IMG/VR virus record: IMGVR_UViG_3300027486_000276
Location: 1-64,000 of that record
DNA length: 64,000 nucleotides
From: a virus
Taxonomy: Duplodnaviria; Caudoviricetes
Direction: 5' to 3' (one strand)
Each line of letters opens with the position of its first letter. The first letter of the stretch is position 1. The position numbers were made by a program, and so were the translations under genes. The notes below the pieces were generated by a model. That model made no database searches. It worked only from the letters and a program-made list of their open reading frames with translations, and had not been told where the DNA came from. Shown piece by piece: positions 12,901 through 43,452 of this stretch.

Positions 12901-13728
12901 ATGAATACAATATTTATCCCCGTTTATCCAAAGCCATCTGGCGCAAATGTGACGCAGCTTTGCGTTGACTTTAATGCATTTGATCCTCATGAAGGAGTGA
13001 AATTCTCTGTTGTGATGAAAAATCCAGCAGGTCTAGTATTAGATAAAACTTTTACTAATCTTGCAGGAGACGACTGGCAAGACTGGCCACCTGAGCAAAC
13101 TGCTACAGCCGATTATGATTATGTAAAGAATGTGATATTAGAAAATTTAGGATACACTCAAGCTATTGCTCCATTTATTACTTCTCAACCAGTAGATCAA
13201 AAAGTTCTAGATGGACAAGCTGCTGAATTTTCCGTAGTGGCAAGCGGTGATTCTCCATTAAGTTATCAATGGGTTAAAAATGGATCAGATGTCGAAGGGG
13301 CGACTTCTTCAATTTATTCTATACCAACTGTTGGAACTGGAGATTTGGGTTCTTATAATGTTAAGATCAACAATCCAGCAGGTTCAATTACTAGCTCTAA
13401 CGCTTCATTGAATTTATTCCAAGCTCCAGTAATTACATCTCAGCCACAAAATCTTGACTTGATGGTCAGTGGGGTTGGCTACTTGAACGTGGGAGTTATG
13501 GGAGATCAGCCATTTGCTTTCCAATGGGATAAAAATGGTGAGATTATTCTAGCTGCCACTGGAAGTGCTTTTGAAATTACGAATGCTCAAATCTCTGATT
13601 CTGGAAATTACTCTGTAACAGTTAGCAATGTTGCTGGATCTGTAAAGAGTGATCTTGCTATCGTAACTGTAAATGAGCCAACTCCTCCACCTCCTCCTCC
13701 ACCAGTTCCAACTGGAGATAATGCTTAA
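12901..13728 (+). CDS. Immunoglobulin (I-set-like) two-domain virion protein with poly-Pro tail (275 aa)
   Basis: Two repeats of APxITSQP...SVxxxGxxPxxYQWxKNG...DxGxYxVxxxNxAG; ends PTPPPPPPPVP. Confidence 0.8.
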   Translation: MNTIFIPVYPKPSGANVTQLCVDFNAFDPHEGVKFSVVMKNPAGLVLDKTFTNLAGDDWQDWPPEQTATADYDYVKNVILENLGYTQAIAPFITSQPVDQKVLDGQAAEFSVVASGDSPLSYQWVKNGSDVEGATSSIYSIPTVGTGDLGSYNVKINNPAGSITSSNASLNLFQAPVITSQPQNLDLMVSGVGYLNVGVMGDQPFAFQWDKNGEIILAATGSAFEITNAQISDSGNYSVTVSNVAGSVKSDLAIVTVNEPTPPPPPPPVPTGDNA

Positions 13729-19569: not shown

Positions 19570-19788
19570 ATGGCTATGGATATAAAAATGAAAGAGTTTG
19601 TTCTCTTTCAAAATCGGCGTAAAGTTATTAATCTATATAAAAACTTTTTAATCTTACTTGAAGATTTAAAAGAAGATGGTTATAATATAACTGAAGATAA
19701 GTATCAAAGGCTAAGAAAAAAAGTTCTTGATTCTGGCAATGATACTATCAGACAGTTCGAAGAAGAACTAAATAATATAGATTTATAA
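19570..19788 (+). CDS. Small hypothetical helical protein (72 aa)
   Basis: AAAGGT repeats upstream; stop overlaps the start of the next gene. Confidence 0.6.
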   Translation: MAMDIKMKEFVLFQNRRKVINLYKNFLILLEDLKEDGYNITEDKYQRLRKKVLDSGNDTIRQFEEELNNIDL

Positions 19789-20528
19789 TGAAAACGATAT
19801 ACGAATTTGCAATAAATAAAGAAGGCGTTGTAAAAGAGACAGAAGAGTCTGTAAACGAGGCTGGTCAAAAAGTCACGATTACCAAAGATGTAACTACTCA
19901 GATTCCTCATAACTATTTTATCAAAAAGCCTACTAGAGCTTTGTTTGACGAAGCTGAATTGTTTTATGGCGTTAAGCTTTCTGAAGGAGTAAAAGCTGGT
20001 CTTCTTACTCGTACACTACTAAACAAGAGATACGTTGATGATGGCGGAATCTTAGCAGACAAGACTAAGAATGCAGAAGCCGATGCTTACAAGGATCTCT
20101 ATGACGCTCAAAACGAACTACAAAGACTTCTTGCTTTAGAAGAAAAAGATCGACCAGATTATTTTGCAGCAAAAAAAGAAGAGTTAGAATCCAAGATTAC
20201 TGTAATTAAAAACTCTCTAACAGAACTAGAGATGCAAAAAGAATCCTTGTTTGATAATACCGCAGAAACAAGGGCGCGTAATAAAGTAATTACTTGGTGG
20301 ATATTATTTTTGTCATACTATGAGAAAAACGGGGAGAAACAACCATTCTTTGGTGAAGGAGATTATGAAACCCGAATGAACAGGTATGACGAAATTTTTG
20401 AATCAGAAGATCCTCATCTAGTAAAGGTGGCTAATGCTTTCATTTACTTTATTAGCTTCTGGTATGTTGGTAGAGCAAATTCGAAGGAAGACTTCGATGT
20501 ATTAAAGTTAGAACAAAAAATCTTTTAA
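19788..20528 (+). CDS. Putative tail assembly chaperone 1
   Basis: Charged, helical protein between the tube and TMP genes (lambda G position). Confidence 0.55.
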   Translation: MKTIYEFAINKEGVVKETEESVNEAGQKVTITKDVTTQIPHNYFIKKPTRALFDEAELFYGVKLSEGVKAGLLTRTLLNKRYVDDGGILADKTKNAEADAYKDLYDAQNELQRLLALEEKDRPDYFAAKKEELESKITVIKNSLTELEMQKESLFDNTAETRARNKVITWWILFLSYYEKNGEKQPFFGEGDYETRMNRYDEIFESEDPHLVKVANAFIYFISFWYVGRANSKEDFDVLKLEQKIF

Positions 20529-20549
20529 TTTCTTGCATTAATTAATCCT

Positions 20550-20575
20550 AGCCCCTGCGCGAGCGGGGGCTTTTT
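20550..20575 (+). terminator. Rho-independent terminator
   Basis: AGCCCCTGC-GCGA-GCGGGGGCT hairpin (GNRA loop) plus T5. Confidence 0.85.
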
Positions 20576-20580
20576 AGCAT

Positions 20581-21597
20581 ATGGACATAGAAGCCTTTAA
20601 TAAAAATCTAAAATCCCTTTACTGGGACATAATAAATGGTTCGTCTTTATTTATATTAGATGGTAAAAATTACTATGTTAAGCACATGTCTCCTAAAGAC
20701 GCTGGTACGATAGAAATACAAGAAAATTACTATTATAACAGAGCAAAGTCTCAAGGTATCCAAACAAACGAAGAGAAGATACAAGAATTAATAAAAGAAA
20801 ATCTTTACAGCAAAAAAGATGATCAAAAGATAGAAAATAGCAAATTAACTCTTGCGAATTTAGCAAAAACTCGTCGCAAATTATACTTAACTAGAGACCT
20901 TGATAACATTGATAAACAAATGAAAGAGATCTCTGAAGAGATACGAGTTCTAGAACAAAAGAAAAGCGACTTACTAGAGAATACTTGTGAGACATATTCT
21001 GCCAAGCGAATGAATGAGTTTTACATTTATTACTCAGTATATATTGATGAAAAATGCGAAAAACATGCTTTTACTTTAGAAGAGTTTGAGGATATAGATC
21101 AAGTTGAGTTATTTAATTTAGTTAGTGCGTATTCTAAATGCGCCCAAAAATTCAATAACCATAATATAAAAAGAATAGGAGTTAGCGGATTTTTCCTTAA
21201 TTATTTCTATTTGTCTGAAGATAATCCCTATTTCTTTTATGGTAGACCAATTACACACCTAACATTTTATCAGGTTGAGTTGTTTGGTTATGCTAGATAC
21301 TTCAAAGACTTAATGAGCAAGTCTAGTGTCAAGCATCCTGATGAGTATAATAATGATGTAGATAAGATTATTGATTGGTATGAGTCTAGTAGCAATCTTG
21401 AAAAATTACATGAAGATAAGAACGCTGCTTCAGGTAAAGAAACAGCGGTTCAGGCAGTTTCTGTCATGGGAGCTACCAAGGAAGACCTAAAGAAATTAAA
21501 GCAAGACAATACTGGAGCCATCTCTCTAGATGAAGCCGCAAAGAAAAAAGGCGGCTCATTAAGTTTTGAAGATTTAATCAAATTACACGGCGTTTAA
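20581..21597 (+). CDS. Putative tail assembly chaperone 2
   Basis: Charged, helical protein immediately upstream of the TMP (lambda T position). Confidence 0.5.
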   Translation: MDIEAFNKNLKSLYWDIINGSSLFILDGKNYYVKHMSPKDAGTIEIQENYYYNRAKSQGIQTNEEKIQELIKENLYSKKDDQKIENSKLTLANLAKTRRKLYLTRDLDNIDKQMKEISEEIRVLEQKKSDLLENTCETYSAKRMNEFYIYYSVYIDEKCEKHAFTLEEFEDIDQVELFNLVSAYSKCAQKFNNHNIKRIGVSGFFLNYFYLSEDNPYFFYGRPITHLTFYQVELFGYARYFKDLMSKSSVKHPDEYNNDVDKIIDWYESSSNLEKLHEDKNAASGKETAVQAVSVMGATKEDLKKLKQDNTGAISLDEAAKKKGGSLSFEDLIKLHGV

Positions 21598-21625: not shown

Positions 21626-24600
21626 ATGGCTACATCAGCAGGAAATATTCCCATTTCAGCGACGTTTGCTGCCGCGCAGCTTGAAAAAGATGTGTTGTCG
21701 GCGTTGAATCGTATCCAGAGCAAGAGTAATCTTTCTCTAAATACAAGAAATTTTTCTCAACCACTGGGTAAAATTACTGGTCTTGCTAATGAGTTTAATA
21801 AGTCTTTAGAGGCTTCAAACGCCCGTGTAGTTGCATTCGGAGCTTCTGCTGGTCTTATTTTTGCAGTTCAAAAGTCATTTTCCTCTTTAGTAAATACTAC
21901 TATCGAAGTAGAAAAGTCTCTTACTGATATCAATGTAGTATTAAATACATCTTCTAAGGGCATCAAGCAATTTGGAGATCAGTTATTTAGTGTAGCAAAA
22001 AATACTGGATCGGCTTTTAAAGATGTAGCCAGTGCTGCAACAGAATTTTCAAGACAAGGTTTGGGATTAGAAGAGACATTAAAGAGAACAAGAGATGCTC
22101 TTATCTTAACTCGTCTTTCTGGTCTTGATGTCGTTTCTAGTACTGAGGCTCTTACTGCTGCTGTAAACTCATTTACAAAAGAAGCTCTCACTACAACTGA
22201 TGTAGTAAATAAGTTAGCCGCCGTTGACGCTAAATTCGCAGTTAGTTCTAGAGACTTGTCCGAAGCTATTCAGCGTGTAGGTTCTTCAGCCAGCGAAGCT
22301 GGAGTTAGTTTTGATGAATTGTTAGGTATTGTTACTTCTGTTCAGCAAACAACTGCCCGTGGTGGTGCTGTAATCGGTAACGCTTTAAAGACTATTTTTA
22401 CAAGAATAGAAAGACCTCAAGTTATCAGTGATTTGAAAGACTTTGGTATTGCTGTTACTGATATTTCAGGAAATGCTTTGCCAACGATTAAAGTTATTGA
22501 AAACTTGGCTCAGTCATTTCAAAATTTAAATCCTGTTATTAAATCTCAAGTTGCTGAACTTGTTGGTGGTGTTTATCAAATTAACATTTTAAAAGCGGCA
22601 TTAGCAGACGTATCAAAACAAAATTCTGCATTCGCAGAAGCTACAAGAACTTCCTCTAAGGCAGCAGACGAAGCTATATTAAAGAATAAAGCATTAAACG
22701 AAAGCCTTTCTGCTTTACTTAATGAGACAACTATTAATTTCACAAAATTTGCTACCTCAATTGGAGAAGCAAGCGTTGGACCCGGAATTAGAAAAGTTTT
22801 AGGCTATATTAATTCAAGCTTAGAGTCTTACAATGAAAAAGACGCAGAGGGAGTTGGCGAAAAAATTGCGACTGGCGTATTAAGTGGTGTTACTAATTTT
22901 ATAACTGGTCCCGGTTTAGGTATTGGAGCGTTTGCAATTGGAAAACTATTAGCTAACTTTACTAAATTCGCTGGAGATGCGACTAAAAATCTTTTGGGGC
23001 TAAATACTCTTGGAAGGCAACAAGCTGTTTTACAATCAGAAATTGGTAAAATTCTTTCTGATAATCCTGATCTAATTAAAGACATTATCTCTGGATCTAG
23101 AACTCGCTTGCAAGTAGAACAACAAATAAAGCAAACTCTTATAGAACAAGCTGCTTTATCGGAACAAATTAAAAATTCTTCTATTGATATAGGCGGTAGA
23201 TTTTTAGCTTCAGGCTTAAGAGTTTCTGAAAAGAATACTATTGTTGGAAGAAGAAGCGCAGAAGGATACATTCCAGCAAAACAGCAAGCCGCAGAGATGG
23301 TTGGAGCTATGCAAGGTGGTTATACTCCCGGTAGAGTAGTTGCTGCTCCAAAGTCAATTGGCGGAATAATGAATACTGCCGAAACAGTTAAATATATTCC
23401 CGGTTTCGCTCAACCTTATATTTTACCTCCTCAAGGATCTCGCGCAGCACAAGCTTTGGCTTCAAAGTCAATGGCAAAGAATGGAATTAATCCTTATATG
23501 GCTACAGGATTTGTTCCTAATTTTATTCCTATGCCATTAGAAAATGATGCTTATGGATACGGAGATGATGAATGGCTTCGCAGAGCAAGTGATCGTGCGG
23601 TTCCTCTTGCTAATATTAGACTTGATCCTAAATATCAGGCTGCTTTTGATCCATCTAGACCGAAAGGCGAAAGATTTTATAGAAAAGATGGTGCGCCATT
23701 TACAGCGAATGATTTAAATCACTTTGTAAGAGCAGGAGCGAAATATGGAGAAATAAGAGCAGAAATGCCAGCTTCTATTTTGATGAGCGATAAAAGATAT
23801 GGTAAAAGAAAACCAGATGGTACAATTTTTGGTTTGGATGATATTAGAGCTACTTACGCTCCCGGAAAAAAAATAGAAGCTGAACAAAAGGTTAAAGAAG
23901 GAATAAAACAAGTTTATGATCCTTATATTCCCCCCGCTTCAATGCTTGTCTTTGACGCAATGCAAAAGAGTTCAGAGAGGGATGTCAATGAAGATGATTT
24001 GGAAAAAACAGGAGAGATGTCCACTAAAAGAAAAACTTCTGGAAGAATTTTTAAGATTAAATCTTATGCTCTAAATGCTTCAGCCTTAAATGAAGAAAAA
24101 ACTGGACTAATTCAAAAAACACAAGATTTTTCTCGTAAAATGACTAAAGATCTTGCTAATTACATTAGACCCGGAGAATATTCAGACACTTCTGTTGATA
24201 ATTTTTTTGGAGCAGCAGGTAAAAATTATAATGTATTAGCTGGTACAATATTTGAAGCTTCTACAAATTTAGCTGCTAATTATACAAGAGATAAAGCTAA
24301 TTCTGGAGGAGATTTTGACGTAAGAGGCGGAAATATTGGAAACATAAGACAGCTTTTCCCCGGATTTACAGACCAATATGGAGATTATAAATTAAAAAAT
24401 AATGATGAAGCTATAAGATCATTTATTGATAAAGTCACGAAACAATATGGTCAACAGATAGGAAATCACTTTAAAGAGCAAGAAATTAAAGCAGGTAGCG
24501 TTACTAGTGGATTTAAAACTAGTTCTTTTGGTTTTATTCCTAATTTCGCTCCAAAGCCTTTTAATTTTAGATTTTCAAACCTAGGAGAAAAAACAGCCCA

Positions 24601-27600
24601 AATTTCTCCCAAGTTAAGAGATTGGCTCGCTGACAAATACTTCGACCCCGAAATGGCAAGCACAGGAACTTTGGAAAGACTAGCTTCTTTGAATCGTGAT
24701 TCTGGGGCATTCTTTTCTAGTCTTGAGAATCCAAATGCTGTAGCTGGTATTCCTGTTAGAGGTCAACAAGGTTTTGTTTCTAGACAAAATAGAGGAGCAA
24801 GAGCAGGAGCTTTCTTGAATGCTTTAAGGGCAAGATTGCCAGATTTTATTCCCGGATCTTTGCCAAATTTAGCTTCTGGTTTCATTCCTAATTTCGCTTA
24901 TAGGATAAACAAACCAGTATATAGTAAAACATCTACTAGAGAATTAACAGATCCTGAAACAGGAAGTTATTTAAGATATTATCCCGGAGATTTTTATAAT
25001 AAAGAAACAAAATCTCAAGAAAGATCTTTAAATGTCAGCTATATTAGATCCAAGCGGACAGGTCAAGGCCAAGAGATGTTTGATAGGTTTTCAAAAATGG
25101 CTAGGAGACAAAAACTTAAAGGTTTTTCTGATCTCCTCGTAGAACAAGGTGATAGAGTAGGGAAAATAATTCCTAAAGAAAAATATGGTTATTTAAAGGA
25201 AAAACTAAGCGCAGACGAGATAAAAAATTATTCTATACTTGAAGACACTTCGTTTGAAGATATTGTTAAAATGGCATATCCTCAGTTGGCTTACAGACAA
25301 AGAGGTTTGTCTAAAAACACAAAACTATCACTAAACTATCGCGATTATGCTGGATTTTTAAAATACGAGGACCTTTCTGGTAAAGATATCCTCTCTCAAG
25401 TACAAAATAAATTAAAAGATGTTTACGGGAATAATAAAGATACTTTAATCCAAGAGATTTTACATAAAAATATAGGTATAAACGATTTACAAGATACTTT
25501 CTCTAAAGGATATGTGCCTAATTTTTCTTATGCAGTATCTAAACCGGGATTCAATAGATCCGCTTCGAAGAGACAGATTCATGATAAAAAGACAGGAAGT
25601 TATTTAGAGTATACCCCCGGAGTAGTTGACTCAGAAAAAGTTTTAAAATTTGGTTTTATTAACTCTTATGAGAAAGGGCAAGGTCATGAAATGTTTGATC
25701 GATATGGAAAAATAGCTAGGCGTTCGGGACGTAGGTCTTATTCCAGTATAATTCTCCCACAAACAAATAAAATTGTTCCCAAAGAAAAATATGATCTTTT
25801 AAATGAATACCAAAAGAAAAATCGTCATATTCTTGAAGGTCTCTCTCTTAGAGATGCTCTAAAAATATCTTATCCTCAGTTAATGTATAGAGAAAGAGGG
25901 ACGAGTAAAGAGTCAAGTCTGAGCTTCATGAAAATATCTACTGAAAAAAGTCCATTTGAAAAGGAAACTCTTACTGGAAAAAAAATATTTTCTTCAGTCT
26001 TAGATAAATTAACTGGCATATACGGATCTGATGTACCAGAATTCGTAAAAGATGTCGAAGCGCGTAAGATTTATATAAGTGAGTTATATGATACTTTCTC
26101 TAAAGGTCATGTTCCTAATTTTGCTTATAAATTAAAGAAAAGAAAGCAATATGAAAATGATAAAAAGAATAATTTTAGAACATTAACTGATCCTGAAACA
26201 GGAAGCCATTTGGATTACTATCCCGGAAATTTTGTCAATCCAAATACAGGTAGTTACGAAAAGGGTTTAAAAATCAGCTACATTGAATCTAATCAAAAGG
26301 GTCAAGGTCAAGAGATGTTTGATCGATATTCAAAAACCGCCAAACGACTAGGAGTTAATTCTTACTCTTCTGTTATTGTAGCACAAGGCGACAAATTAAA
26401 GAGAGTCATTCCTCAAAAACAATATGCTCTTTTAAGAGACAAAGATAAAGAAAAGCATTATGTTTTAGAAGAAACTTCAATAGAAGATATAGTTAAAATA
26501 GCTTATCCTCAATTGTCTTATAGACAAAAAGGGTTGTCTAAAAGCACAAATTTAAAATTTTCAAATCGTAACTATGTTGGGCGCATGGAAGAAGAGGAGA
26601 TTTTTGGTAAAAATATTTTATCTTTGGTTCAAGGCAAAATTAAAGATCTTTATAAAAATGATAAACAGTCTTTCATTGATGCCGTTATTGACGGAGATCT
26701 CGCAATAGAGGCTTTAGTTGATACTTTTTCTAAAGGTCATATACCTAATTTTAATGCAGTCCAAGAAGCAATAGGAAGAGAGATGGCCGCTGGATACTCC
26801 TCTTCTCAAGTTAAAGTAGGCCAAAGCAGCAAACTAAAGACAAGCTTCAATCCAATGGGATTAGGAGTTTATAACTCCACAGAAGGTTCTCTTAATGGTG
26901 GAATTGGATTAGCAGAAAAAGCTGGAATAGACCCTAAGACAAAAGGAATGTCTTCAAAAGGACATATCCCTAATTTTGCTGACTTTGGAGGCGCAGATGC
27001 TTTTATATTGATTGCCGCTTTTGGAACTCTTAGTACTGCTTTAAAAGAAGTTTCAGGAAATTTCCAGAATCTAAAAACAACTTCAGATAATTTAAAAAAA
27101 TCATATGAATCTGCTGCTGCTAGTTTTGCAAGCGAAATGGGTAAGGCTAAACAATCACTTAATAGAACTTTATCATCTATTGAAAGCGAAGTAAAGAGTA
27201 CTTTTACTAATATAGATCCAAAGACTTTAAAACAAAAAGGTTCTTCTGTTGCTCCTTTAGTTATGGGGCCTCGCGTTAGAGATGCTCTTGGAACATATAC
27301 TAGTTCTCCTCAAGCCGCATCTTCAGAACAAGTAGCAAGATTGGAAGAGTTAAGAAATCAAACCGTTGAGGCTAGAAAACAAGAAGCTAAAAGAATTAGA
27401 GAAGCTAGGGCGGGATTAAGACAAATGCAGGGACAGATAGCCGAAACAGAAACTCCTTTCTTTTCAAGAGGCAGTTTTTCATCAGGAGGAAAAGCAGATA
27501 GATACGTTAGAGGAATGGGCACTCAAATTGGTTTAATCGGCAGTGTTATTTCAAATGTCGCTGGACAATTCATCTCTCCAGAAAACAAAACAGCAAAAGC

Positions 27601-30600
27601 TGCAATGGCCGGTGTAGGAGAAATTAGTTCTTTTGCTGGTTTAGGAGCGCAATTTGGTGTTCCCGGTATGGTGCTAGGAGGAATTGCGGGACTTGGATCT
27701 GCTCTTTTAAAACTTAAAGATGCTAAAGCTGAAGAAGCTATCGATAAAATCAATAAATCTTTAGGAGAGACAAAAGAAAAATCTTCTGAATTTTCTGGTG
27801 CCGCTCAAAATTACTCTACTTCTTTAGAAGGTTTACAAAACGCTTTAAATGATCCTAAGACGAAACCTGAAGCACTATTAAAGTTTCAAAATAATCTAAC
27901 AGAAGCTTTAAATAGTATTCCTGAAGAGTTCAGAAGTAAAGTATTAGCCGCAGGTTCAGACATAACTAAAGTTAGTGAAGCTATTGGCAATATAAATAAA
28001 GAAATGGCTAATACTCAAAAGAATTTGGAGCGTCAATTAGCTATTACAGAGTTTATTGAAAAGCAATCTTCTATTTTTGGCAGAGCCAGTTTAAAACCAA
28101 AAGATCAAGAGGTATTTAATAGACTATTTACTTCTTCTATTAAATCAGAAGAATTAGTTAAAAAATTTACTGGTAAAAATGCTAAAGAAGATTTTGGCAA
28201 TTTTATTGATTCTTTAAAATCCGAAGCGATTTATGATAAAGATATTATCGGGCCTTATAATTCTCGTTTAGGGACTGAGACGCTTGTAAATAAGGAAAGC
28301 GCAGAAAATATAAAAGCGCAGTTAAGGCAAAAAACAATTATCCCAGAAGAAATAATTAATCAGCTTGATAAAGCTTTCGCTGAACTTGATGGTAAAGCAT
28401 TAGGTTCTTTATTAGACTCTATCAAAAAAGCGGGTATAAGCGTTTTTGATTTTACTGAGAAAACAAAAATTCTTGGAGAAATAGCAGCAGAAAATGCAAA
28501 AAGAATCAAAGAAAATGAAGAATCTCTTAAAGCTTTAAATAATCAGTATAATAATATTAATCTTCAAATTTCTAATCAAATTGATATAGAAAAAAATCGC
28601 GCTCAAACCATTAGAGAAATAAATAAAATTCAAGCAGAAGGCGTGGTTTCAATCCAAAGAGCTAGAGTTAAAGGTCTTTTAGAATCAGCTACTCCATTTA
28701 TTAGTGAGTCTTCAAAATCGGACATCCAAAATCAATTAGATCTAAATGAGATAACTTCTAGACAAAATTCTAAAATTCAAGAAGCTTCTAATAAACTTTT
28801 AGATTCTTTTTCAAATACAATAATTAAAAAATCAGAAGAAGCTAGATCAAAAGTTGTTCCTGCTATTGAAGGAGCCAAATCTGAAAACGCTATTCAACAA
28901 GAAAGATTTGTTTTCCAAAATCAAATTCAAAAACTAACTCCTTTAATTACTCAATCATTAAAAGAAATAACTTCTGGCGGAAACATAGGAGATATTCAAG
29001 CAAATTTAATTAAGAGTATAACAGGATTTTCTAAATTCAAGCCTGAAGAAAGAGATGTCCTTATACAGAGTCTTGAAGTGTCTTTTGCAGAATTTAAAAA
29101 TACTCTTGCTGAAATAAAGGCTCAAGGTGATGTAGATATTCAGATTCAAGAAGCTCAAAGAGAATATCAAAAACAATCACTAGCCTTAAATCAAAGACTT
29201 TCTTTTGCTGGTGGCGCACAAGCTTTAAGTTCAACTGGTAAAACAGGGGTTTCTGATCTTTTTGATAATATTTCTGAGTTAGTTTCTGAATTAAGACAAA
29301 CAAATACTATTGGAAATGCTGCTCAAAAAGGATCTAGTGCTTTTAAATTGCTTGATGTGTTAACAAATCAATTGCAGTTAAATAGAAATATTAATGCTCC
29401 AAATCTACCAAATAATTTTATTGGACCAAATATAAGTGGAGAGATGTTTAATAAACAAGTCTCATCTGATTTAACCCCTTTAGCAGCTACAGCAATTGCT
29501 GGCAGAGTACAACAAATAAGAGATAGTTTAGATTTAGCTCGTAAAGTTACTGAAATACAAATAGGAAAAACAGCTCAAGGAACTGCTTTAGGTACTGCTT
29601 TCGATCAAGCAAAAGAAGGAGCAGTAAGAACTGCTTTAGATCAAATTGCTTCTCAGTTTAAGTTAGAGAATATGGGTAATTATCTTGATGTATTACAACA
29701 AGAAGCTAGATTTTTAAATCAATTAACCCAAGATCAAAATTCTATTTTAGAAAGCACATTACCAAAAAGTATAAATGACAATTTTAATACTGTTATTACC
29801 CGAGAAGTAGGTACAAAATTAACTACATTAACTACATCATTACAAAATGTTATTAATAAATTAGCTACCGATACAAAGAGAACAAATCTTTTAACTGAAA
29901 GATCTAATCTTTTGCCAGTTGCAAGCGTAGGTACTAGAAAAGCTATTTTTGATAGAATAGCTCAATCACAAGATTTAACAGATCTTCCTAAAGGAGTAAA
30001 ATTTATAGATGATAAAGAAAGAATATCCTCTTTAAAAACAGAAATAAAAGATTTAGAAAGCTATTTAGAAAGTTTGAAGACAGTTGGACAAGCGCAGATA
30101 CAGCCAATTACTAAAGAATTGCAGAGATATCAACCACAAACAGATATGGATGAAATTTTATCTGGCTTGCAAAGATATCAAACAGAAGAACAGGCAATGC
30201 AATCTACTATTCAAAGCGCGAAAATTTCTTCTGAAGCAGAAGCTAAATTAACAGAAGCTAAATCTACTCTACAAAAACTTAGTAAATATGAAGGAAGTGA
30301 TCCTAAAAAATTAGAATCACTTTTGGAAAGTTTAAAAAGTGAACTAATTAGATTGAACGAACCTACAAAACAAGATTATTTAAATACTACTTATGAAGGA
30401 CTTGCAAAACAAATTTTTAGAGATTTTAACCAGCAGATGTCTATTGAAGACATAAAATCTTTAAAAGAAAACGCTCGTAAAGAAAGAAATTTAGCGACCG
30501 AAAAGCCTTTGATGGATGTAGATGCTAAAGTAGGTACTGGCTCAGGACAAGGTTCAAAAACTTCGACAGATGGTGGTGTAAAACGAGATATTCCTAGCCA

Positions 30601-32338
30601 ATTAAGATTATTAAGAGAAAATTCAGATAGAATTACAAGTTTGCTTGCATTTAGATTACAAAATGACAAAGAACTTATTGACCTTAATGAAAAAGTAAAT
30701 GCACTTTTAAAAGGTGATGCAGTTGACACAGCCAAAAGAGCAGAATTAATTAAGCTTCAAACTGAATTAAGAGCAAAAACTTTAGAACAAGAAGGTAAAG
30801 TCGCAGAAGAGTTATATAATTTATATTATAAAGAGTCATATGGAGAAACTTTCTTTAAGGATGAAAGAGCAGCTTTTGCTAACGCTAAAATCGAAAATGA
30901 AGCTCGTCAAGGAAGAGTAGATATTGGAGCCATAACAGAAAAGAATACTACTTACAATAGAGCCGATTTTGCTAGAGACACTGGTCAATTGATCGACACT
31001 TTCCAAACTGATTTCAAATCAGGTATTGCTAGTGCATTTGGTGAAGCTATCAAAGGAACTAAAACTCTTAAGGATGCATTTAGAGATATGTTCCAAGGCA
31101 TCTTAAATAGAATGCTTGATAAGTCTTTAGAGATGGGAGTTGATGCTTTATTTGCTTTTGGTAAAGCTGCAACTGGCAGAAAAGATGGTGGATTAATCAG
31201 AGGTTATAATTCTGGAGGTATGGTTGTTGGTGGCTCTGGAATGAAAGATGATGTACCCGCTATGATGAGTGGCGGCGAATACGTTATCAAGAAGTCTTCT
31301 GTTAAAAAATACGGTTCTGATTATTTAAGAGCTTTAAATGGAGGTATTGTTCCTAAATATGCAACTGGAGGATTCTCTATAGGCCCATTGCAGAATGAAT
31401 TCTTATACAATGATCCTGATCGTCCAACTTCTGGAGAGTTTGCTATTGATTCTAGACTATCAGCCGCAGCTTTAACTGACGAGAATAATCCTCAAAATAG
31501 ATTAAGACAAGATCGTTATGAAAAGCTTGATCAATACTTACAAGACAGATCTCAATACGAGAAAGACAAACAGCAAGCTATTAAAAATTACAAAAATCAA
31601 GTAAATAGCACTTTCTATTCAGGTTTAACTGCTGCTGCTGTTCAATTAGGTGCTGCTGGCCTTACGGTTGGAGCAGCTAATATGAGAACTAATGCAGCAA
31701 CATCTGCTGCAAGAGGTCTAGAACCCGGAGGCAACTTAACTCAAGCTCAATTAAACGCTCAATATGCAAGAAATCTTAGGTCAAATGGTGGTTATATAGC
31801 TAGATTTGCTGGCGGTGGATCAACAGGTAAAGATAATATTCCTGCCTTGTTAATGGGCGGCGAATATGTCATGAACAAGAAAGCCGTAGATATGTACGGC
31901 AGAGACTTCATGAATCAATTAAATACTGGTACATTGCCTAAGTATGCCAGTGGCGGAATGGTTGGTACAAGCTATACAGCAGGTCAAAATGTACCTGAAT
32001 CTAGCGTGACCGAACTAGTCGCTGCTCTTAATACATTGAATGAAAACCTTTCCAAGGGCAATGACATCACCCAAGCTGAGTCAGGTAAAATTTCTGCTGC
32101 TGGAGCAAATCAAGAATCTGGAATGTCTGTAGTTAATAACATTTCAATTAATGTTGCTCAAAGCGGCGAAGTCACTTCTGAAGCTAATGCTACCACTCAA
32201 AATGGCGGCTCCAATACCAACAAAGATCAAAACAGCATTCAAAACAATGCTAAACTTGCTGAACTACTCAGAAGCAAAGTCGTTGAAGTATTGGTCGAGC
32301 AGAAGAGACCCGGAGGATTACTTTACGCCAGCAGATAA
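21626..32338 (+). CDS. Tape measure protein (3570 aa) with an internal cargo-domain array
   Basis: N-terminal TP901-family-like core (EFSRQG, LAAVDAKFAVSS, RGGAVIGNALKTIF), long A/E/K/Q helical stretches, and C-terminal KDDVPAMMSGGEYVI repeats typical of TMPs. Confidence 0.92.
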   Translation: MATSAGNIPISATFAAAQLEKDVLSALNRIQSKSNLSLNTRNFSQPLGKITGLANEFNKSLEASNARVVAFGASAGLIFAVQKSFSSLVNTTIEVEKSLTDINVVLNTSSKGIKQFGDQLFSVAKNTGSAFKDVASAATEFSRQGLGLEETLKRTRDALILTRLSGLDVVSSTEALTAAVNSFTKEALTTTDVVNKLAAVDAKFAVSSRDLSEAIQRVGSSASEAGVSFDELLGIVTSVQQTTARGGAVIGNALKTIFTRIERPQVISDLKDFGIAVTDISGNALPTIKVIENLAQSFQNLNPVIKSQVAELVGGVYQINILKAALADVSKQNSAFAEATRTSSKAADEAILKNKALNESLSALLNETTINFTKFATSIGEASVGPGIRKVLGYINSSLESYNEKDAEGVGEKIATGVLSGVTNFITGPGLGIGAFAIGKLLANFTKFAGDATKNLLGLNTLGRQQAVLQSEIGKILSDNPDLIKDIISGSRTRLQVEQQIKQTLIEQAALSEQIKNSSIDIGGRFLASGLRVSEKNTIVGRRSAEGYIPAKQQAAEMVGAMQGGYTPGRVVAAPKSIGGIMNTAETVKYIPGFAQPYILPPQGSRAAQALASKSMAKNGINPYMATGFVPNFIPMPLENDAYGYGDDEWLRRASDRAVPLANIRLDPKYQAAFDPSRPKGERFYRKDGAPFTANDLNHFVRAGAKYGEIRAEMPASILMSDKRYGKRKPDGTIFGLDDIRATYAPGKKIEAEQKVKEGIKQVYDPYIPPASMLVFDAMQKSSERDVNEDDLEKTGEMSTKRKTSGRIFKIKSYALNASALNEEKTGLIQKTQDFSRKMTKDLANYIRPGEYSDTSVDNFFGAAGKNYNVLAGTIFEASTNLAANYTRDKANSGGDFDVRGGNIGNIRQLFPGFTDQYGDYKLKNNDEAIRSFIDKVTKQYGQQIGNHFKEQEIKAGSVTSGFKTSSFGFIPNFAPKPFNFRFSNLGEKTAQISPKLRDWLADKYFDPEMASTGTLERLASLNRDSGAFFSSLENPNAVAGIPVRGQQGFVSRQNRGARAGAFLNALRARLPDFIPGSLPNLASGFIPNFAYRINKPVYSKTSTRELTDPETGSYLRYYPGDFYNKETKSQERSLNVSYIRSKRTGQGQEMFDRFSKMARRQKLKGFSDLLVEQGDRVGKIIPKEKYGYLKEKLSADEIKNYSILEDTSFEDIVKMAYPQLAYRQRGLSKNTKLSLNYRDYAGFLKYEDLSGKDILSQVQNKLKDVYGNNKDTLIQEILHKNIGINDLQDTFSKGYVPNFSYAVSKPGFNRSASKRQIHDKKTGSYLEYTPGVVDSEKVLKFGFINSYEKGQGHEMFDRYGKIARRSGRRSYSSIILPQTNKIVPKEKYDLLNEYQKKNRHILEGLSLRDALKISYPQLMYRERGTSKESSLSFMKISTEKSPFEKETLTGKKIFSSVLDKLTGIYGSDVPEFVKDVEARKIYISELYDTFSKGHVPNFAYKLKKRKQYENDKKNNFRTLTDPETGSHLDYYPGNFVNPNTGSYEKGLKISYIESNQKGQGQEMFDRYSKTAKRLGVNSYSSVIVAQGDKLKRVIPQKQYALLRDKDKEKHYVLEETSIEDIVKIAYPQLSYRQKGLSKSTNLKFSNRNYVGRMEEEEIFGKNILSLVQGKIKDLYKNDKQSFIDAVIDGDLAIEALVDTFSKGHIPNFNAVQEAIGREMAAGYSSSQVKVGQSSKLKTSFNPMGLGVYNSTEGSLNGGIGLAEKAGIDPKTKGMSSKGHIPNFADFGGADAFILIAAFGTLSTALKEVSGNFQNLKTTSDNLKKSYESAAASFASEMGKAKQSLNRTLSSIESEVKSTFTNIDPKTLKQKGSSVAPLVMGPRVRDALGTYTSSPQAASSEQVARLEELRNQTVEARKQEAKRIREARAGLRQMQGQIAETETPFFSRGSFSSGGKADRYVRGMGTQIGLIGSVISNVAGQFISPENKTAKAAMAGVGEISSFAGLGAQFGVPGMVLGGIAGLGSALLKLKDAKAEEAIDKINKSLGETKEKSSEFSGAAQNYSTSLEGLQNALNDPKTKPEALLKFQNNLTEALNSIPEEFRSKVLAAGSDITKVSEAIGNINKEMANTQKNLERQLAITEFIEKQSSIFGRASLKPKDQEVFNRLFTSSIKSEELVKKFTGKNAKEDFGNFIDSLKSEAIYDKDIIGPYNSRLGTETLVNKESAENIKAQLRQKTIIPEEIINQLDKAFAELDGKALGSLLDSIKKAGISVFDFTEKTKILGEIAAENAKRIKENEESLKALNNQYNNINLQISNQIDIEKNRAQTIREINKIQAEGVVSIQRARVKGLLESATPFISESSKSDIQNQLDLNEITSRQNSKIQEASNKLLDSFSNTIIKKSEEARSKVVPAIEGAKSENAIQQERFVFQNQIQKLTPLITQSLKEITSGGNIGDIQANLIKSITGFSKFKPEERDVLIQSLEVSFAEFKNTLAEIKAQGDVDIQIQEAQREYQKQSLALNQRLSFAGGAQALSSTGKTGVSDLFDNISELVSELRQTNTIGNAAQKGSSAFKLLDVLTNQLQLNRNINAPNLPNNFIGPNISGEMFNKQVSSDLTPLAATAIAGRVQQIRDSLDLARKVTEIQIGKTAQGTALGTAFDQAKEGAVRTALDQIASQFKLENMGNYLDVLQQEARFLNQLTQDQNSILESTLPKSINDNFNTVITREVGTKLTTLTTSLQNVINKLATDTKRTNLLTERSNLLPVASVGTRKAIFDRIAQSQDLTDLPKGVKFIDDKERISSLKTEIKDLESYLESLKTVGQAQIQPITKELQRYQPQTDMDEILSGLQRYQTEEQAMQSTIQSAKISSEAEAKLTEAKSTLQKLSKYEGSDPKKLESLLESLKSELIRLNEPTKQDYLNTTYEGLAKQIFRDFNQQMSIEDIKSLKENARKERNLATEKPLMDVDAKVGTGSGQGSKTSTDGGVKRDIPSQLRLLRENSDRITSLLAFRLQNDKELIDLNEKVNALLKGDAVDTAKRAELIKLQTELRAKTLEQEGKVAEELYNLYYKESYGETFFKDERAAFANAKIENEARQGRVDIGAITEKNTTYNRADFARDTGQLIDTFQTDFKSGIASAFGEAIKGTKTLKDAFRDMFQGILNRMLDKSLEMGVDALFAFGKAATGRKDGGLIRGYNSGGMVVGGSGMKDDVPAMMSGGEYVIKKSSVKKYGSDYLRALNGGIVPKYATGGFSIGPLQNEFLYNDPDRPTSGEFAIDSRLSAAALTDENNPQNRLRQDRYEKLDQYLQDRSQYEKDKQQAIKNYKNQVNSTFYSGLTAAAVQLGAAGLTVGAANMRTNAATSAARGLEPGGNLTQAQLNAQYARNLRSNGGYIARFAGGGSTGKDNIPALLMGGEYVMNKKAVDMYGRDFMNQLNTGTLPKYASGGMVGTSYTAGQNVPESSVTELVAALNTLNENLSKGNDITQAESGKISAAGANQESGMSVVNNISINVAQSGEVTSEANATTQNGGSNTNKDQNSIQNNAKLAELLRSKVVEVLVEQKRPGGLLYASR
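23501..26977 (+). repeat. Seven G(F/Y/H)(I/V)PNF delimiter motifs and three ~200-aa tandem repeats within the TMP
   Basis: Motif Gly codons at 23507, 24530, 24878, 25508, 26105, 26735 and 26960. Repeat units are 630, 597 and 630 nt. Confidence 0.9.
31186..31960 (+). repeat. Duplicated TMP C-terminal motif
   Basis: GG..GKDDVPAMMSGGEYVIKKSSVKKYG...PKYATGG versus GG..GKDNIPALLMGGEYVMNKKAVDMYG...PKYASGG. Confidence 0.85.
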
Positions 32339-41235: not shown

Positions 41236-41961
41236 TTATATATTATTTATTTGGTCTTTTACGTCTGCTGCTGTTGATTTATTATCTAGCTCAATATTAT
41301 TGACAGATACCTCAACTGTCTGAGATCCTATTTTCATTCTACCATAACCAATTGGAACAGGACCACCTTCTCCAAGAATGTTAGAAGGTCCGTCAAATAA
41401 GTAGTTTGGCTTGCTGCCATCTTCTTGGATTTTTCTAAAATCATCAAATTTTGGAGGCGACATCATTAACAATGTAATACCTGTTACAGCTAATCCTATA
41501 CCTGCTCCAATTAATGCTCCTGATAAAGTCGCACTTGCTGTAGCAGATAGCCCAAGCCCAAACCCAACTGGCGCAAAAACGCCTGTGGCTATTAGCAAAA
41601 CGCCAAGAACTAAAGCTAAGACTCCTTTGGTCGTATTGTTTCCGCCTCCTCCACCAGCACCCCTAATAATTGGAACGATATCTAAGGTTTCTAGCTTTTC
41701 GTTAATCATTACTAATTCAGAATTGAGAATAGAATCTGGTTTTTCTAGAGAAATGCTTTCTGGATTCATTATTTCTCTCTTATTAACAAGCACTTTATAC
41801 TCTACGCTTTTTTCTGCTGCTCCTATTAGATATTTTAGGAGTTTGCCTTTAGATAAGACTTGAATAGCTCGCAATGCTTCCTTTATGGAATTTACTTTTA
41901 AATTCCAATTTTCTCTTCCCACTTGCTCTGCTATTTCTCCGTGTAAGGTAATGCTAGTCAT
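41236..41961 (-). CDS. Tail assembly protein, lambda gpI-like
   Basis: ITLHGEIA, IVPIIRGAGG, Gly/Ala hydrophobic stretch, NYLFDGPSN...GGPVPIGYG. Confidence 0.88.
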   Translation of the reverse strand: MTSITLHGEIAEQVGRENWNLKVNSIKEALRAIQVLSKGKLLKYLIGAAEKSVEYKVLVNKREIMNPESISLEKPDSILNSELVMINEKLETLDIVPIIRGAGGGGGNNTTKGVLALVLGVLLIATGVFAPVGFGLGLSATASATLSGALIGAGIGLAVTGITLLMMSPPKFDDFRKIQEDGSKPNYLFDGPSNILGEGGPVPIGYGRMKIGSQTVEVSVNNIELDNKSTAADVKDQINNI

Positions 41962-42700
41962 AAAGGTGATGTCTCATTATATAAATTACCCATTTTTTGT
42001 ATTGGTTAGAAAGCTTTTCGGTAAGAGAACGCTTATTTCCGGGGTGATGTAAAATAGTATCTTCTCCAAGATAAACAGCGCAATGGATAGGAAAATTATA
42101 ACCTCTTGTTCTCATTATTAGAACATCGTTCTTTTTAAAATTAGAAACTTCTCTAAAACCGTTGTACTCAAAATATCTCTTTAAATAATTATCTTTTTCC
42201 TTTAATGCGGCTTCTTCGTCTGTGAATCTTTTAGTTACTATATCATTATACTCTTGCTCAGATACAGATTCTTTTAGAACCTCTAACTCTGGGCATAAAT
42301 GAATATTTAAATCATGACAGAAATAATCTTTTACTAACCAAAGGCAATCAGCAAAACCTAAAAGAAAAGGTCTGTCTGTATATTGAATTTTATATCCATT
42401 TGGATAATAGATGTGAAAAACTCCACTCTGTTTATTATAAACTATACATGGTAAGCCTAGCCTTTCAGAAACAATTTCGTCTGCATTTGAAATAGCATCA
42501 AAATCTATATGAGAATGATAATAAGCCGCAAAATTAGATTGGCTATAAATATCCATCGCAAATTCAGTAGCTGAATTAATGAGGTTATCTTTCTTTTGTA
42601 CCTCTAGTCCATTATCTGTATGTACTAAAACGCCGCATACTTCATTATTAGAAGTATTAGCGTGTTCTATGATTTTATTTTTAAGCTCTTCTGTTAACAT
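41954..42700 (-). CDS. Tail assembly protein gpK-like, copy 2 (JAB/MPN + NlpC/P60)
   Basis: EVCG...YHSH...S..D (JAB); DCLWLV...HCAVYLG...ILHH (NlpC/P60). Confidence 0.85.
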   Translation of the reverse strand: MLTEELKNKIIEHANTSNNEVCGVLVHTDNGLEVQKKDNLINSATEFAMDIYSQSNFAAYYHSHIDFDAISNADEIVSERLGLPCIVYNKQSGVFHIYYPNGYKIQYTDRPFLLGFADCLWLVKDYFCHDLNIHLCPELEVLKESVSEQEYNDIVTKRFTDEEAALKEKDNYLKRYFEYNGFREVSNFKKNDVLIMRTRGYNFPIHCAVYLGEDTILHHPGNKRSLTEKLSNQYKKWVIYIMRHHLYD

Positions 42701-43452
42701 AATTGTTTACTCCTTGCAAAACAATAGATCCTTCTCTTCTCTGCGTCTGTTAGTTTTTCTATTATTGACTTTTTATTTCTTGGTTGGTGCAAAATATAAC
42801 CTTGTTCAAGGTAAATGCCAAAATGAGAAGGATAGTTATCTAAATACTTGAACACAATAATATCATGTTTTTTAGCGTTTTCTATACCTTCTATTTTGAT
42901 AAAGTTTTCTTTTTCAAAGAATTTGTCAAAGTTCTCTGAATCACAAAACTCTGTTAGTTTATTTTTAACAAAATCTGCGTAGTTTTTATCCCAATCTACC
43001 CCTCTTTCGTAATGGAAAATCTTAATGCCAAATTCTTCATTATAATAATTCTCTACTATTGATAAACAGTCAGATTGATTAATAACAAAGTTTTTGTTTA
43101 TGTATTTATTATAGTAATTTTCAGGAGAATACTCTTCAAAAGAATCTCTTTTTAGTATATAAACGATATTCTTTAGTTTTAAATTAGAACTAATTTGCTT
43201 GTCTAGTTCAGAAAAAGAATTGTCTTGAATACAGTGAGAATGATAAATGCCAGCCACTTTGCCATTCATTGAGGCTTTGAGGTAGTCCATTTGGCATACA
43301 ACGAATTCATTTTCTTTATCTTGAGCAGCATTCCTGCATGGAAATGCTTCTAGGATATTTTTTCTATTTAGAACTAAAAGACCGCAGCATTCTTCAGGAT
43401 TTTCCTTTAGCGCGTGTTCTTTTATTTTTGCTTTTATTTCATCCGAAACCAT
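42694..43452 (-). CDS. Tail assembly protein gpK-like, copy 1 (JAB/MPN + NlpC/P60)
   Basis: PEECCG...YHSH...FSELD; DCLSIV...HFGIYL...ILHQ. Confidence 0.88.
   Translation of the reverse strand: MVSDEIKAKIKEHALKENPEECCGLLVLNRKNILEAFPCRNAAQDKENEFVVCQMDYLKASMNGKVAGIYHSHCIQDNSFSELDKQISSNLKLKNIVYILKRDSFEEYSPENYYNKYINKNFVINQSDCLSIVENYYNEEFGIKIFHYERGVDWDKNYADFVKNKLTEFCDSENFDKFFEKENFIKIEGIENAKKHDIIVFKYLDNYPSHFGIYLEQGYILHQPRNKKSIIEKLTDAEKRRIYCFARSKQLC

Follow-up and report, generated by a model that had tools for sequence, protein, structure and literature searches.

In the usual view, the tape measure proteins (TMPs) of phages are rulers that also form channels, and they carry at most one cell-wall enzyme. 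Here we analyze a TMP gene in the window, by which we mean the whole stretch of 64,000 nucleotides (nt) from an uncultured virus (Caudoviricetes; IMG/VR record IMGVR_UViG_3300027486_000276, positions 1 to 64,000), together with 163 distinct related TMPs. In the product of this gene the ruler is interrupted by a rack of six modules, U1 to U6, which are separated from each other by one short peptide, G[FYH][IV]PNF (the fence, or PNF motif). The relatives were collected by a region search, which gave 66 TMPs of 2000-5251 amino acids (aa), and by an exhaustive representative search that was added to it; their units were obtained by cutting the TMPs at the motif and then clustering the pieces.

It was shown that the TMP fills the lumen of the tail tube, is expelled ahead of the DNA and forms the entry channel (PMC5099701, PMC10038345). 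In phage T5, the TMP pb2 is cleaved after R1127, between a hydrophobic stretch and the peptidase domain (Sci Adv 2023, PMC10038345); the likeness to our system is that this TMP doubles as an enzyme carrier, and in T5 the cleavage parts the enzyme from the ruler. The transglycosylase-TMP YomI of SPbeta is also comparable, as YomI-type TMPs share the N-terminal domain of the window TMP at ~28% identity. Yet pb2, YomI and the VanY-bearing TMP of one relative (P0025) each have one cell-wall hydrolase, placed towards the C terminus or the tip, whereas the window rack has six modules at a fixed N-proximal site, none of them recognisably muralytic. In Thermus phage P23-45 the giant siphophage TMP, gp96, holds a folded enzyme in its N-terminal part, a virion RNA polymerase (vRNAP) that was proposed to enter with the TMP and to act at the start of infection (Nat Commun 2024;15:317, PMC10770324). 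However, gp96 has one fixed enzyme with no repeated fence peptide, array or reported cassette exchange, and no sequence relation between the two proteins was seen. The Sle1-type TMP-related effectors of actinobacterial contractile injection systems (J Bacteriol 2026, PMC13277306) likewise combine a TMP-derived scaffold and an exchangeable domain inside a tail-like tube, but they have one C-terminal functional domain each, belong to bacterial systems and not to phages, and are without PNF fences.

The arrangement described here is a variation on what is already known from enzymes embedded in TMPs, from the polymerase that is fused to the P23-45 TMP, and from polyvalent proteins. Polyvalent proteins, which Iyer, Burroughs, Anand, de Souza and Aravind are said to have described in 2017, are reportedly giant proteins of many domains, conflict-related and shuffled, that occur in phages and conjugative elements; they are also said to be delivered with the DNA, to be processed in some cases, and to have methylases, helicases and zincin peptidases as hallmarks. 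Our TMPs resemble them in their many unrelated domains and shuffled architectures (171 unit families and 100 architectures in the 163 TMPs). The hallmark domains were not found, the domains detected being PF10145 in the window TMP and, among the relatives, DUF7178, a weak HATPase_c and a VanY outside the array. Polyvalent proteins as described also differ in being neither built on TMPs nor fenced by one invariant peptide. In full-text literature searches, neither the motif nor a TMP with an array of this kind turned up in any paper. The reading that we favor, and that we consider reasonably probable, is of a TMP with a peptide-fenced and exchanged rack of modules at a fixed site, whose modules would travel to the host as pre-made proteins.

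The fenced array in the tape measure protein

Judged from its sequence, the product of 21626-32338 is a TP901-family TMP, and the phage a large uncultured siphophage from freshwater whose tail tip is lambda-like. The Pfam model PF10145 (PhageMin_Tail) matches aa 124-310 (E 4.5e-28; 98.9 bits, with a cut-off of 33.2) and several PHROG TMP families match down to E 2e-51, so that the model score lies above the curated cut-off, and the gene is located between the tube/chaperone genes and the tail-tip genes. A protein identical to the window TMP (P0002) occurs in an assembly from ENA. Measured from motif to motif, the layout is an N-terminal part of 627 aa, U1 (341), U2 (116), U3 (210), U4 (199), U5 (210), U6 (75) and a C-terminal part of 1792 aa. 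The features are as follows, with L001 and L002 standing for two related loci that are compared below:

21626..32338 (+): TMP gene, an open reading frame (ORF) of 3570 aa matched by Pfam PF10145 and PHROG TMP families
21626..23263 (+): conserved N-terminal region, aa 1-546, holding the PhageMin_Tail domain
23264..23506 (+): opening mini-unit, aa 547-627, with a degenerate left fence (GYIPAK)
23507..23524 (+): motif 1, GFVPNF, from aa 628
23525..24529 (+): U1, 335 aa between motifs, fold not recognised; PD-(D/E)xK-like pattern in the C-terminal half
24530..24547 (+): motif 2, GFIPNF, from aa 969; left break-point of the block replaced in L002
24548..24877 (+): U2, 110 aa between motifs, no function assigned; horizontally mobile
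24878..24895 (+): motif 3, GFIPNF, from aa 1085
24896..25507 (+): U3, GNAT-like domain, copy a
25508..25525 (+): motif 4, GYVPNF, from aa 1295; L001 differs here by a 678-nt cassette indel
25526..26104 (+): U4, GNAT-like domain, copy b
26105..26122 (+): motif 5, GHVPNF, from aa 1494
26123..26734 (+): U5, GNAT-like domain, copy c, the modelled copy
26735..26752 (+): motif 6, GHIPNF, from aa 1704; L002 homology resumes 10 nt upstream
26753..26959 (+): U6, conserved 75-aa closing unit, containing NPMGLGVYN
26960..26977 (+): motif 7, GHIPNF, from aa 1779
26975..27043 (+): aa 1784-1806, a hydrophobic segment immediately behind the array
26978..32338 (+): C-terminal part of the ruler, aa 1785-3570, in which aa 2010-2030 are hydrophobic and rich in glycine

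All PNF tripeptides of the window TMP fall in the G[FYH][IV]PNF context. The back-translated motif, GGNNNNRTNCCNAAYTTY, has seven matches in the 64-kb window, all in the TMP frame, with 0.07 expected and none of 100 shuffles reaching seven; a looser peptide pattern, searched in six frames of the window, gave nothing outside the TMP. A degenerate eighth motif, GYIPAK, is found at aa 547, where relatives have GYIPNF. Among 732 motifs from 152 large relatives the extended consensus is [AS]-x-G-[FYH]-[IV]-P-N-F-[A]. The seven motifs had been reported in an earlier note on this DNA, and this count stands; the unit lengths that it gave (~335, ~110, 210, 199, 210 and ~70 aa) agree with those measured here, and the three junctions that it described as sharing DNA are real. 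These junctions, which share GATACTTTyTCTAAAGG..AT.T.CCTAATTTT over ~32 nt, are the ends of the paralogous units U3-U5. A frameshift signal at CCU AAU UUU was considered for the motif and rejected, as this is not an X XXY YYZ heptamer.

Where is the rack located in the relatives? Each of the 163 giant TMPs carries 1-14 motifs, and in 81% of them the first motif lies at aa 520-660. The closing unit U6 is present in 103 and is the last unit in 95, and it is the sole matched region for most of 285 library matches. A hydrophobic stretch follows the closing motif in relatives (median maximum Kyte-Doolittle value 1.23) but not the other motifs (median -0.02). Taken together, the position of the first motif, the closing unit and the hydrophobic stretch place the rack at a single, fixed position, behind the conserved N-terminal region and ahead of the ruler's first hydrophobic segment. 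U6 is a conserved element of the TMP backbone and not cargo; in this respect the idea that all the units are cargo cassettes has to be corrected, while the array itself is exchangeable as that idea supposed. An opening mini-unit of ~83 aa stands first in 39 of the 163 relatives. Homology between the opening and closing mini-units was examined and is unsupported: BLASTP gave no alignment, and the hhalign probability fell from 94.7% to below 50% once the shared motif was masked. Some relatives have two motifs around a single mini-unit of ~80 aa, with no cargo between the N- and C-terminal parts, and the fences are therefore older than the cassettes.

By composition, the units differ from the protein around them. 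Aromatic residues make up 11-12% of U1-U5 vs 5-6% of the flanks and U6, and Pro and Gly together 14-20% of U1, U2 and U6 vs 9-10% of the flanks. In the AlphaFold2 (AF2) model of U5 the motif-bearing ends have a predicted local distance difference test score (pLDDT) below 50 and the core above 90, so the peptide is expected to lie in a flexible linker. An assembly artefact was rejected as the origin of the array, since the same architecture is found in many independent assemblies (JGI, ENA, Logan, NCBI).

Exchange of units among related phages

The rack is hypervariable across the relatives. Cutting at the motif gives 621 units with a median length of 183 aa, which fall into 171 families (123 of them seen once) and 100 architectures. 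The N-terminal region is 98-100% identical in relatives that have different cassettes, and TMPs with such N flanks can hold GNAT-like units that are only 24-36% identical. Of 7534 interior ends of BLAST high-scoring segment pairs, 62% lie no more than 10 aa from a motif, vs 9% for random positions. The proposal that the array is polymorphic, with content varying between conserved flanks, is thus borne out by the related TMPs.

Three events can be followed at nucleotide resolution. The first is a replacement. L002 is 98.9% identical to the window over 12.4 kb upstream and diverges 4-6 nt past the GFIPNFA codons of motif 2; in place of U2-U5 it has a unit of 576 aa and a different GNAT-like unit, and it becomes alignable again 10 nt before motif 6. 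Beyond motif 6 the identity is 82% up to ~29880, and it is back to 97.8% at 30572. The second is an insertion or deletion: L001 has an extra unit of 226 aa (a 678-nt cassette) at motif 4, and the direct repeat GGATATGTCCCTAATTT stands on either side of it. The third is a movement of a single cassette between divergent phages, in which U2 (window 24529-24894) matches L015 (6158-6523) at 96.2% nt identity; the match runs exactly from motif 2 through motif 3. No other strong nt match links the two TMP genes, whose products can hardly be aligned apart from this unit (42% aa identity in the N flanks), and the unit is fifth in the L015 array vs second in the window. Modules are inserted, deleted, replaced and moved between distant TMP genes, with the junctions within the 18 nt that encode the peptide.

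In the comparison with L002, 26725-30572 (L002 15199-18941) forms a second mosaic block, in which the first ~3 kb of helical ruler is 82% identical while both sides are at 98-99%. About 700 nt near 29880-30570 do not align to L002, and the right edge of the block is not at a PNF motif.

One question that is raised by these junctions is whether the motif acts as DNA or as protein. It could be a nucleotide recombination signal, either a micro-homology or a recombinase site resembling CCTAATTT, whose translation is incidental. The mapped junctions all lie in motif DNA, and in the window clade the Pro codon of the motif is CCT in every case (7/7, 8/8, 5/5 and 5/5), vs 38-47% in the background; this uniformity may come from common descent or from some homogenisation at the DNA level. 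Yet in the motifs of L009, L010 and L011, Asn and Phe are each written with both of their codons and Pro with several (with all four in L010), while the residues stay invariant, as they do across the 732 motifs, and the shared DNA core is merely ~8 nt. Because the codons vary while P-N-F does not, the peptide is constrained as protein and has a function of its own, and the reading as a DNA signal is largely refuted; we consider it very improbable. The earlier note had taken the motif as a recombination joint. That holds as far as the motif codons are the break-points in three independent events, but the motif is not merely a joint in the DNA.

The units and their putative functions

U3, U4 and U5 are 45-52% identical to each other and belong to a family with members in 47 of the 163 TMPs. 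For U5, the AF2 model, built on an alignment of 15 sequences, is an alpha/beta structure with a pLDDT of 85.3 and a predicted TM-score of 0.79. When this model was compared with known structures by VIA-align, the top 50 matches were almost all GNAT acetyltransferases (Z 6.1-7.4, with 93-129 residues aligned), among them NAA60 (6tgx, Z 7.4) and AcrVA5 (6iuf, Z 7.3, rmsd 3.2, 93/95 residues). In weaker agreement, Foldseek also gave AcrVA5 (prob 0.99-1.0, E 0.05), a BFVD search gave phage acetyltransferases (prob 0.93-0.99) and the ESM Atlas a weak viral GNAT lead. A profile of U3-U5 found nothing significant among PDB sequences, where the top match was again AcrVA5 (E 0.18). AcrVA5 is a minimal GNAT anti-CRISPR acetyltransferase (PDB 6iuf) that covers the U5 chain almost end to end; the likeness is at the level of the fold, as identity is ~10-16% and U3-U5 carry an extra helical insert of ~55 aa. 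At the position of the coenzyme A (CoA) loop (Q/R-x-x-G-x-G/A after strand beta4) the three window copies have KGQGQE, TGQGQE and KGQGHE. Based on the model, U3-U5 are GNAT-like in fold and putative acyl transferases.

The modelling thus confirms, for at least three units of ~200 aa, that the array holds globular domains and not helical TMP repeats. The wider claim that the whole interruption is non-helical holds for U3-U5, with their alpha/beta model (pLDDT 85), and is only suggested by composition for U1, U2 and U6.

The family of U1 is the commonest cargo and is found in 76 proteins; the clustered relatives give alignments of 76, 10 and 107 members for U1, U2 and U6. In the C-terminal half of U1 the residues FE ... 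GDFD ... D-Y-K are invariant in 17 relatives, and a second cassette family, which hhalign relates to U1 with a probability of 94%, has the corresponding FE / xDF / [DE]-x-K residues. The AF2 model of U1 is poor (pLDDT 46.5; the C-terminal half is helical at low confidence). Wide VIA-align and Foldseek searches of the PDB with this poor model gave nothing meaningful, and the ESM Atlas gave nothing usable (best score 0.75). As a lead from the residue pattern, the C-terminal half of U1 may be PD-(D/E)xK-like and so nuclease-like.

In relatives, the cassettes include DUF7178 and one with a sub-threshold GHKL-ATPase signature. The latter is the 576-aa cassette that replaces U2-U5 in L002 (12905-14650), where the HATPase_c/GHKL ATPase match has an E of 4e-5 and a weak RIIA PHROG match is also seen. 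In L010 the TMP (P0025) has a VanY D-Ala-D-Ala carboxypeptidase domain at aa 3280-3362, in the C-terminal ruler and outside the PNF-fenced array; muralytic and fenced cargo are therefore in different places.

Could the modules be parts of the tail and not effectors at all? They might be tail-internal elements such as plugs, modulators of length or stability, or binders of the DNA end, with a variability that comes from neutral drift and duplication. Every unit is basic (pI 9.0-10.5), which would suit contact with DNA inside the tube, both mini-units (closing and opening) belong to the conserved backbone, and scans of each unit with Pfam, PHROG and NCBIfam found no family at a significant level, so that enzyme family models match none of them. 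However, 171 unrelated families in 100 architectures speak against such a role, and so does a single cassette that has recently moved horizontally (96% nt identity) between phages that are themselves divergent. A GNAT fold in three copies, together with the GHKL-ATPase-like and DUF7178 cassettes of relatives, also fits arms-race cargo better. We regard a purely structural role as improbable.

Setting of the gene, role of the peptide and meaning

The gene lies in a tail region with tube-like genes upstream, and a tip module on the minus strand converges on it; from the tube genes to gpJ, the region covers 16565-45132. Between the tube genes and the TMP gene there is one further feature:

19788..21597 (+): two conserved ORFs of 246 and 338 aa, candidate tail assembly chaperones by position only

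The synteny of these two ORFs with the TMP gene is kept in L001, L002 and L009-L015, and library scans gave no family match for either. A complex prediction of both with U6 had a score of 0.00, which is no verdict and counts neither way. The tip module encodes gpM, gpL, two gpK-like JAB/NlpC-P60 proteins and a gpJ-like protein of 2461 aa. The gpK-like genes are adjacent (41954-43452, minus strand), one with Prok-JAB and NlpC/P60 and the other with NlpC/P60 and a weak N-terminal DUF4329 match; lambda has one K gene vs two here. Upstream of the tail genes, 12901-13728 (+) encodes a 275-aa protein with Ig-like/Hoc-like decoration domains (PHROG tail-protein and Hoc-like matches). Near its end, the TMP itself has two copies (31190-31370 and 31780-31960, plus strand) of a general TMP C-terminal motif, G..D..PA..S.GE[YF]V......V..YG......LN.G. 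The copies end in GGIVPKYA (31343) and GTLPKYA (31928), and this G-x-[VL]-P-K-Y-A resembles the PNF fence; gp16 of mycobacteriophage Douge (PDB 8zdo) has the same C-terminal motif, also in two copies.

A search of IMG/VR for related loci returned near-identical contigs only, which are from freshwater metagenomes and reach 112.8 kb, among them the 112-kb IMGVR_UViG_3300027770_000038. Against cultured phage genomes, neither the DNA of the TMP gene nor U6 in a tblastn search had a match, and the N-terminal domain alone has matches among cultured phages (Bacillus, Lactococcus and others), with ~28% identity; none of these searches found a cultured member of the PNF clade. In a GTDB scan of 185,579 species genomes the sole match was a 5-kb contig (L016, SIBX01000034.1) with 91% identity to the closing unit, binned in a Candidatus Paceibacterota metagenome-assembled genome from Lake Baikal. 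Probably this is a phage fragment that was binned wrongly, and little can be read from it about the host.

How would such a rack work? In the reading that we favor, six basic modules, which would fold independently, are inserted at one fixed site of a TMP that fills the tail tube and leaves ahead of the DNA. As TMPs are known to be expelled in this way, the modules would leave the virion with the TMP and go along into the host envelope or cytoplasm. There they may act as pre-made enzymes, among them candidate GNAT-like acetyltransferases and a possible nuclease-like module, and the racks of relatives would bring GHKL-ATPase-like and other module types. The peptide may be a functional joint that keeps the modules separable, whether by being processed or by serving as a hinge or for docking. 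The short DNA shared through the peptide, together with selection for intact domains, would make the motif the place where cassettes are exchanged.

Several points weigh against this reading. The three TMP chains would bring ~390 kDa of folded modules, which have to fit or unfold in a lumen of ~4 nm. The departure of the modules from the virion, their folding after ejection and their activity are extrapolated from TMP biology. The scores for the GNAT fold are middling (Z below 8; Foldseek E 0.05), Pfam, NCBIfam and PHROG scans of U3-U5 gave no acetyltransferase model even with E up to 1-10, and among 15 family members only one Gly of the CoA loop is invariant (GDG, GDA and GSM variants occur), so these domains could be non-catalytic. 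With regard to exchange, the right-hand crossover of the L002 mosaic is in the ruler near 30572 and not at a motif, and the break-points at the motif could come partly from selection for intact domains and not from a preferred crossover site.

What, then, is the peptide for? One possibility is that it is a proteolytic site, at which either a protease (of the phage or of the host) or autocatalysis at Asn would break the chain. In that case the TMP would be a polyprotein that is cut into free modules, either at tail maturation or after ejection, and enzymes would be released into the host. The peptide is invariant as protein, lies in linkers of low model confidence and stands at every module boundary; processing of T5 pb2 separates the enzyme domain, and gpH of lambda is also processed (PMC10038345). 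The two proteins with JAB / NlpC-P60 peptidase domains in the tip module could be brought in on the same side. However, the motif is absent from every other gene of the 64-kb window, and we know of no protease with specificity for the PNF peptide. Cuts at motifs 1 and 7 would part the N-terminal region from the ruler, and both TMP ends are needed for function in TP901-1 (PMC5099701), while the enzyme fused to the TMP of P23-45 was proposed to work tethered (PMC10770324). Cleavage is in our view possible but doubtful. A stronger version would make the peptide a release signal and the TMP a virion-packed polyprotein, with an aquatic phage clade using the tail lumen for the programmable injection of traded cassettes, including GNATs that disarm defences (as AcrVA5) and a nuclease-like module; we consider this rather unlikely.

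Another hypothesis is that the peptide stays uncut and serves as a hinge or as a short linear motif for docking, with a tail assembly chaperone, the lumen of the tube or a prolyl isomerase of the host as its partner. The modules would be kept spaced, unfolded or in register in the tube and would act while attached to the TMP channel. Such a role agrees with the protein-level constraint on an invariant Pro between hydrophobic residues, with the cargo-free motif pairs of relatives, which make the motif older than the cassettes, and with an array that is always at a single site beside a hydrophobic segment. The vRNAP of P23-45 was proposed to act in association with the TMP pore (PMC10770324), and injection by HK97 needs the periplasmic chaperone FkpA, according to work cited in PMC5099701. 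Yet the docking partner is purely hypothetical, and the sequence data do not separate this hypothesis from cleavage. We regard it as quite possible, while still not expecting it to be the answer.

Whether the peptide is a cut site, a hinge or a docking site is a sharply posed and testable question, which can be asked along with the reading of an exchanged and delivered rack. The fence is also a simple sequence handle with which metagenomes can be mined for such cargo, and it points to the places, naturally tolerant of insertions, at which phage tails could be loaded with proteins. For the phages themselves, our analysis indicates that a large uncultured clade uses one site of its ruler as a plug-in rack, with 171 module families in 163 relatives around one invariant peptide. 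If the modules are delivered, the rack would be a phage counterpart of polymorphic toxin and type VI secretion system cargo systems, and a source of first-minute enzymes for anti-defence or takeover that would act ahead of phage gene expression.

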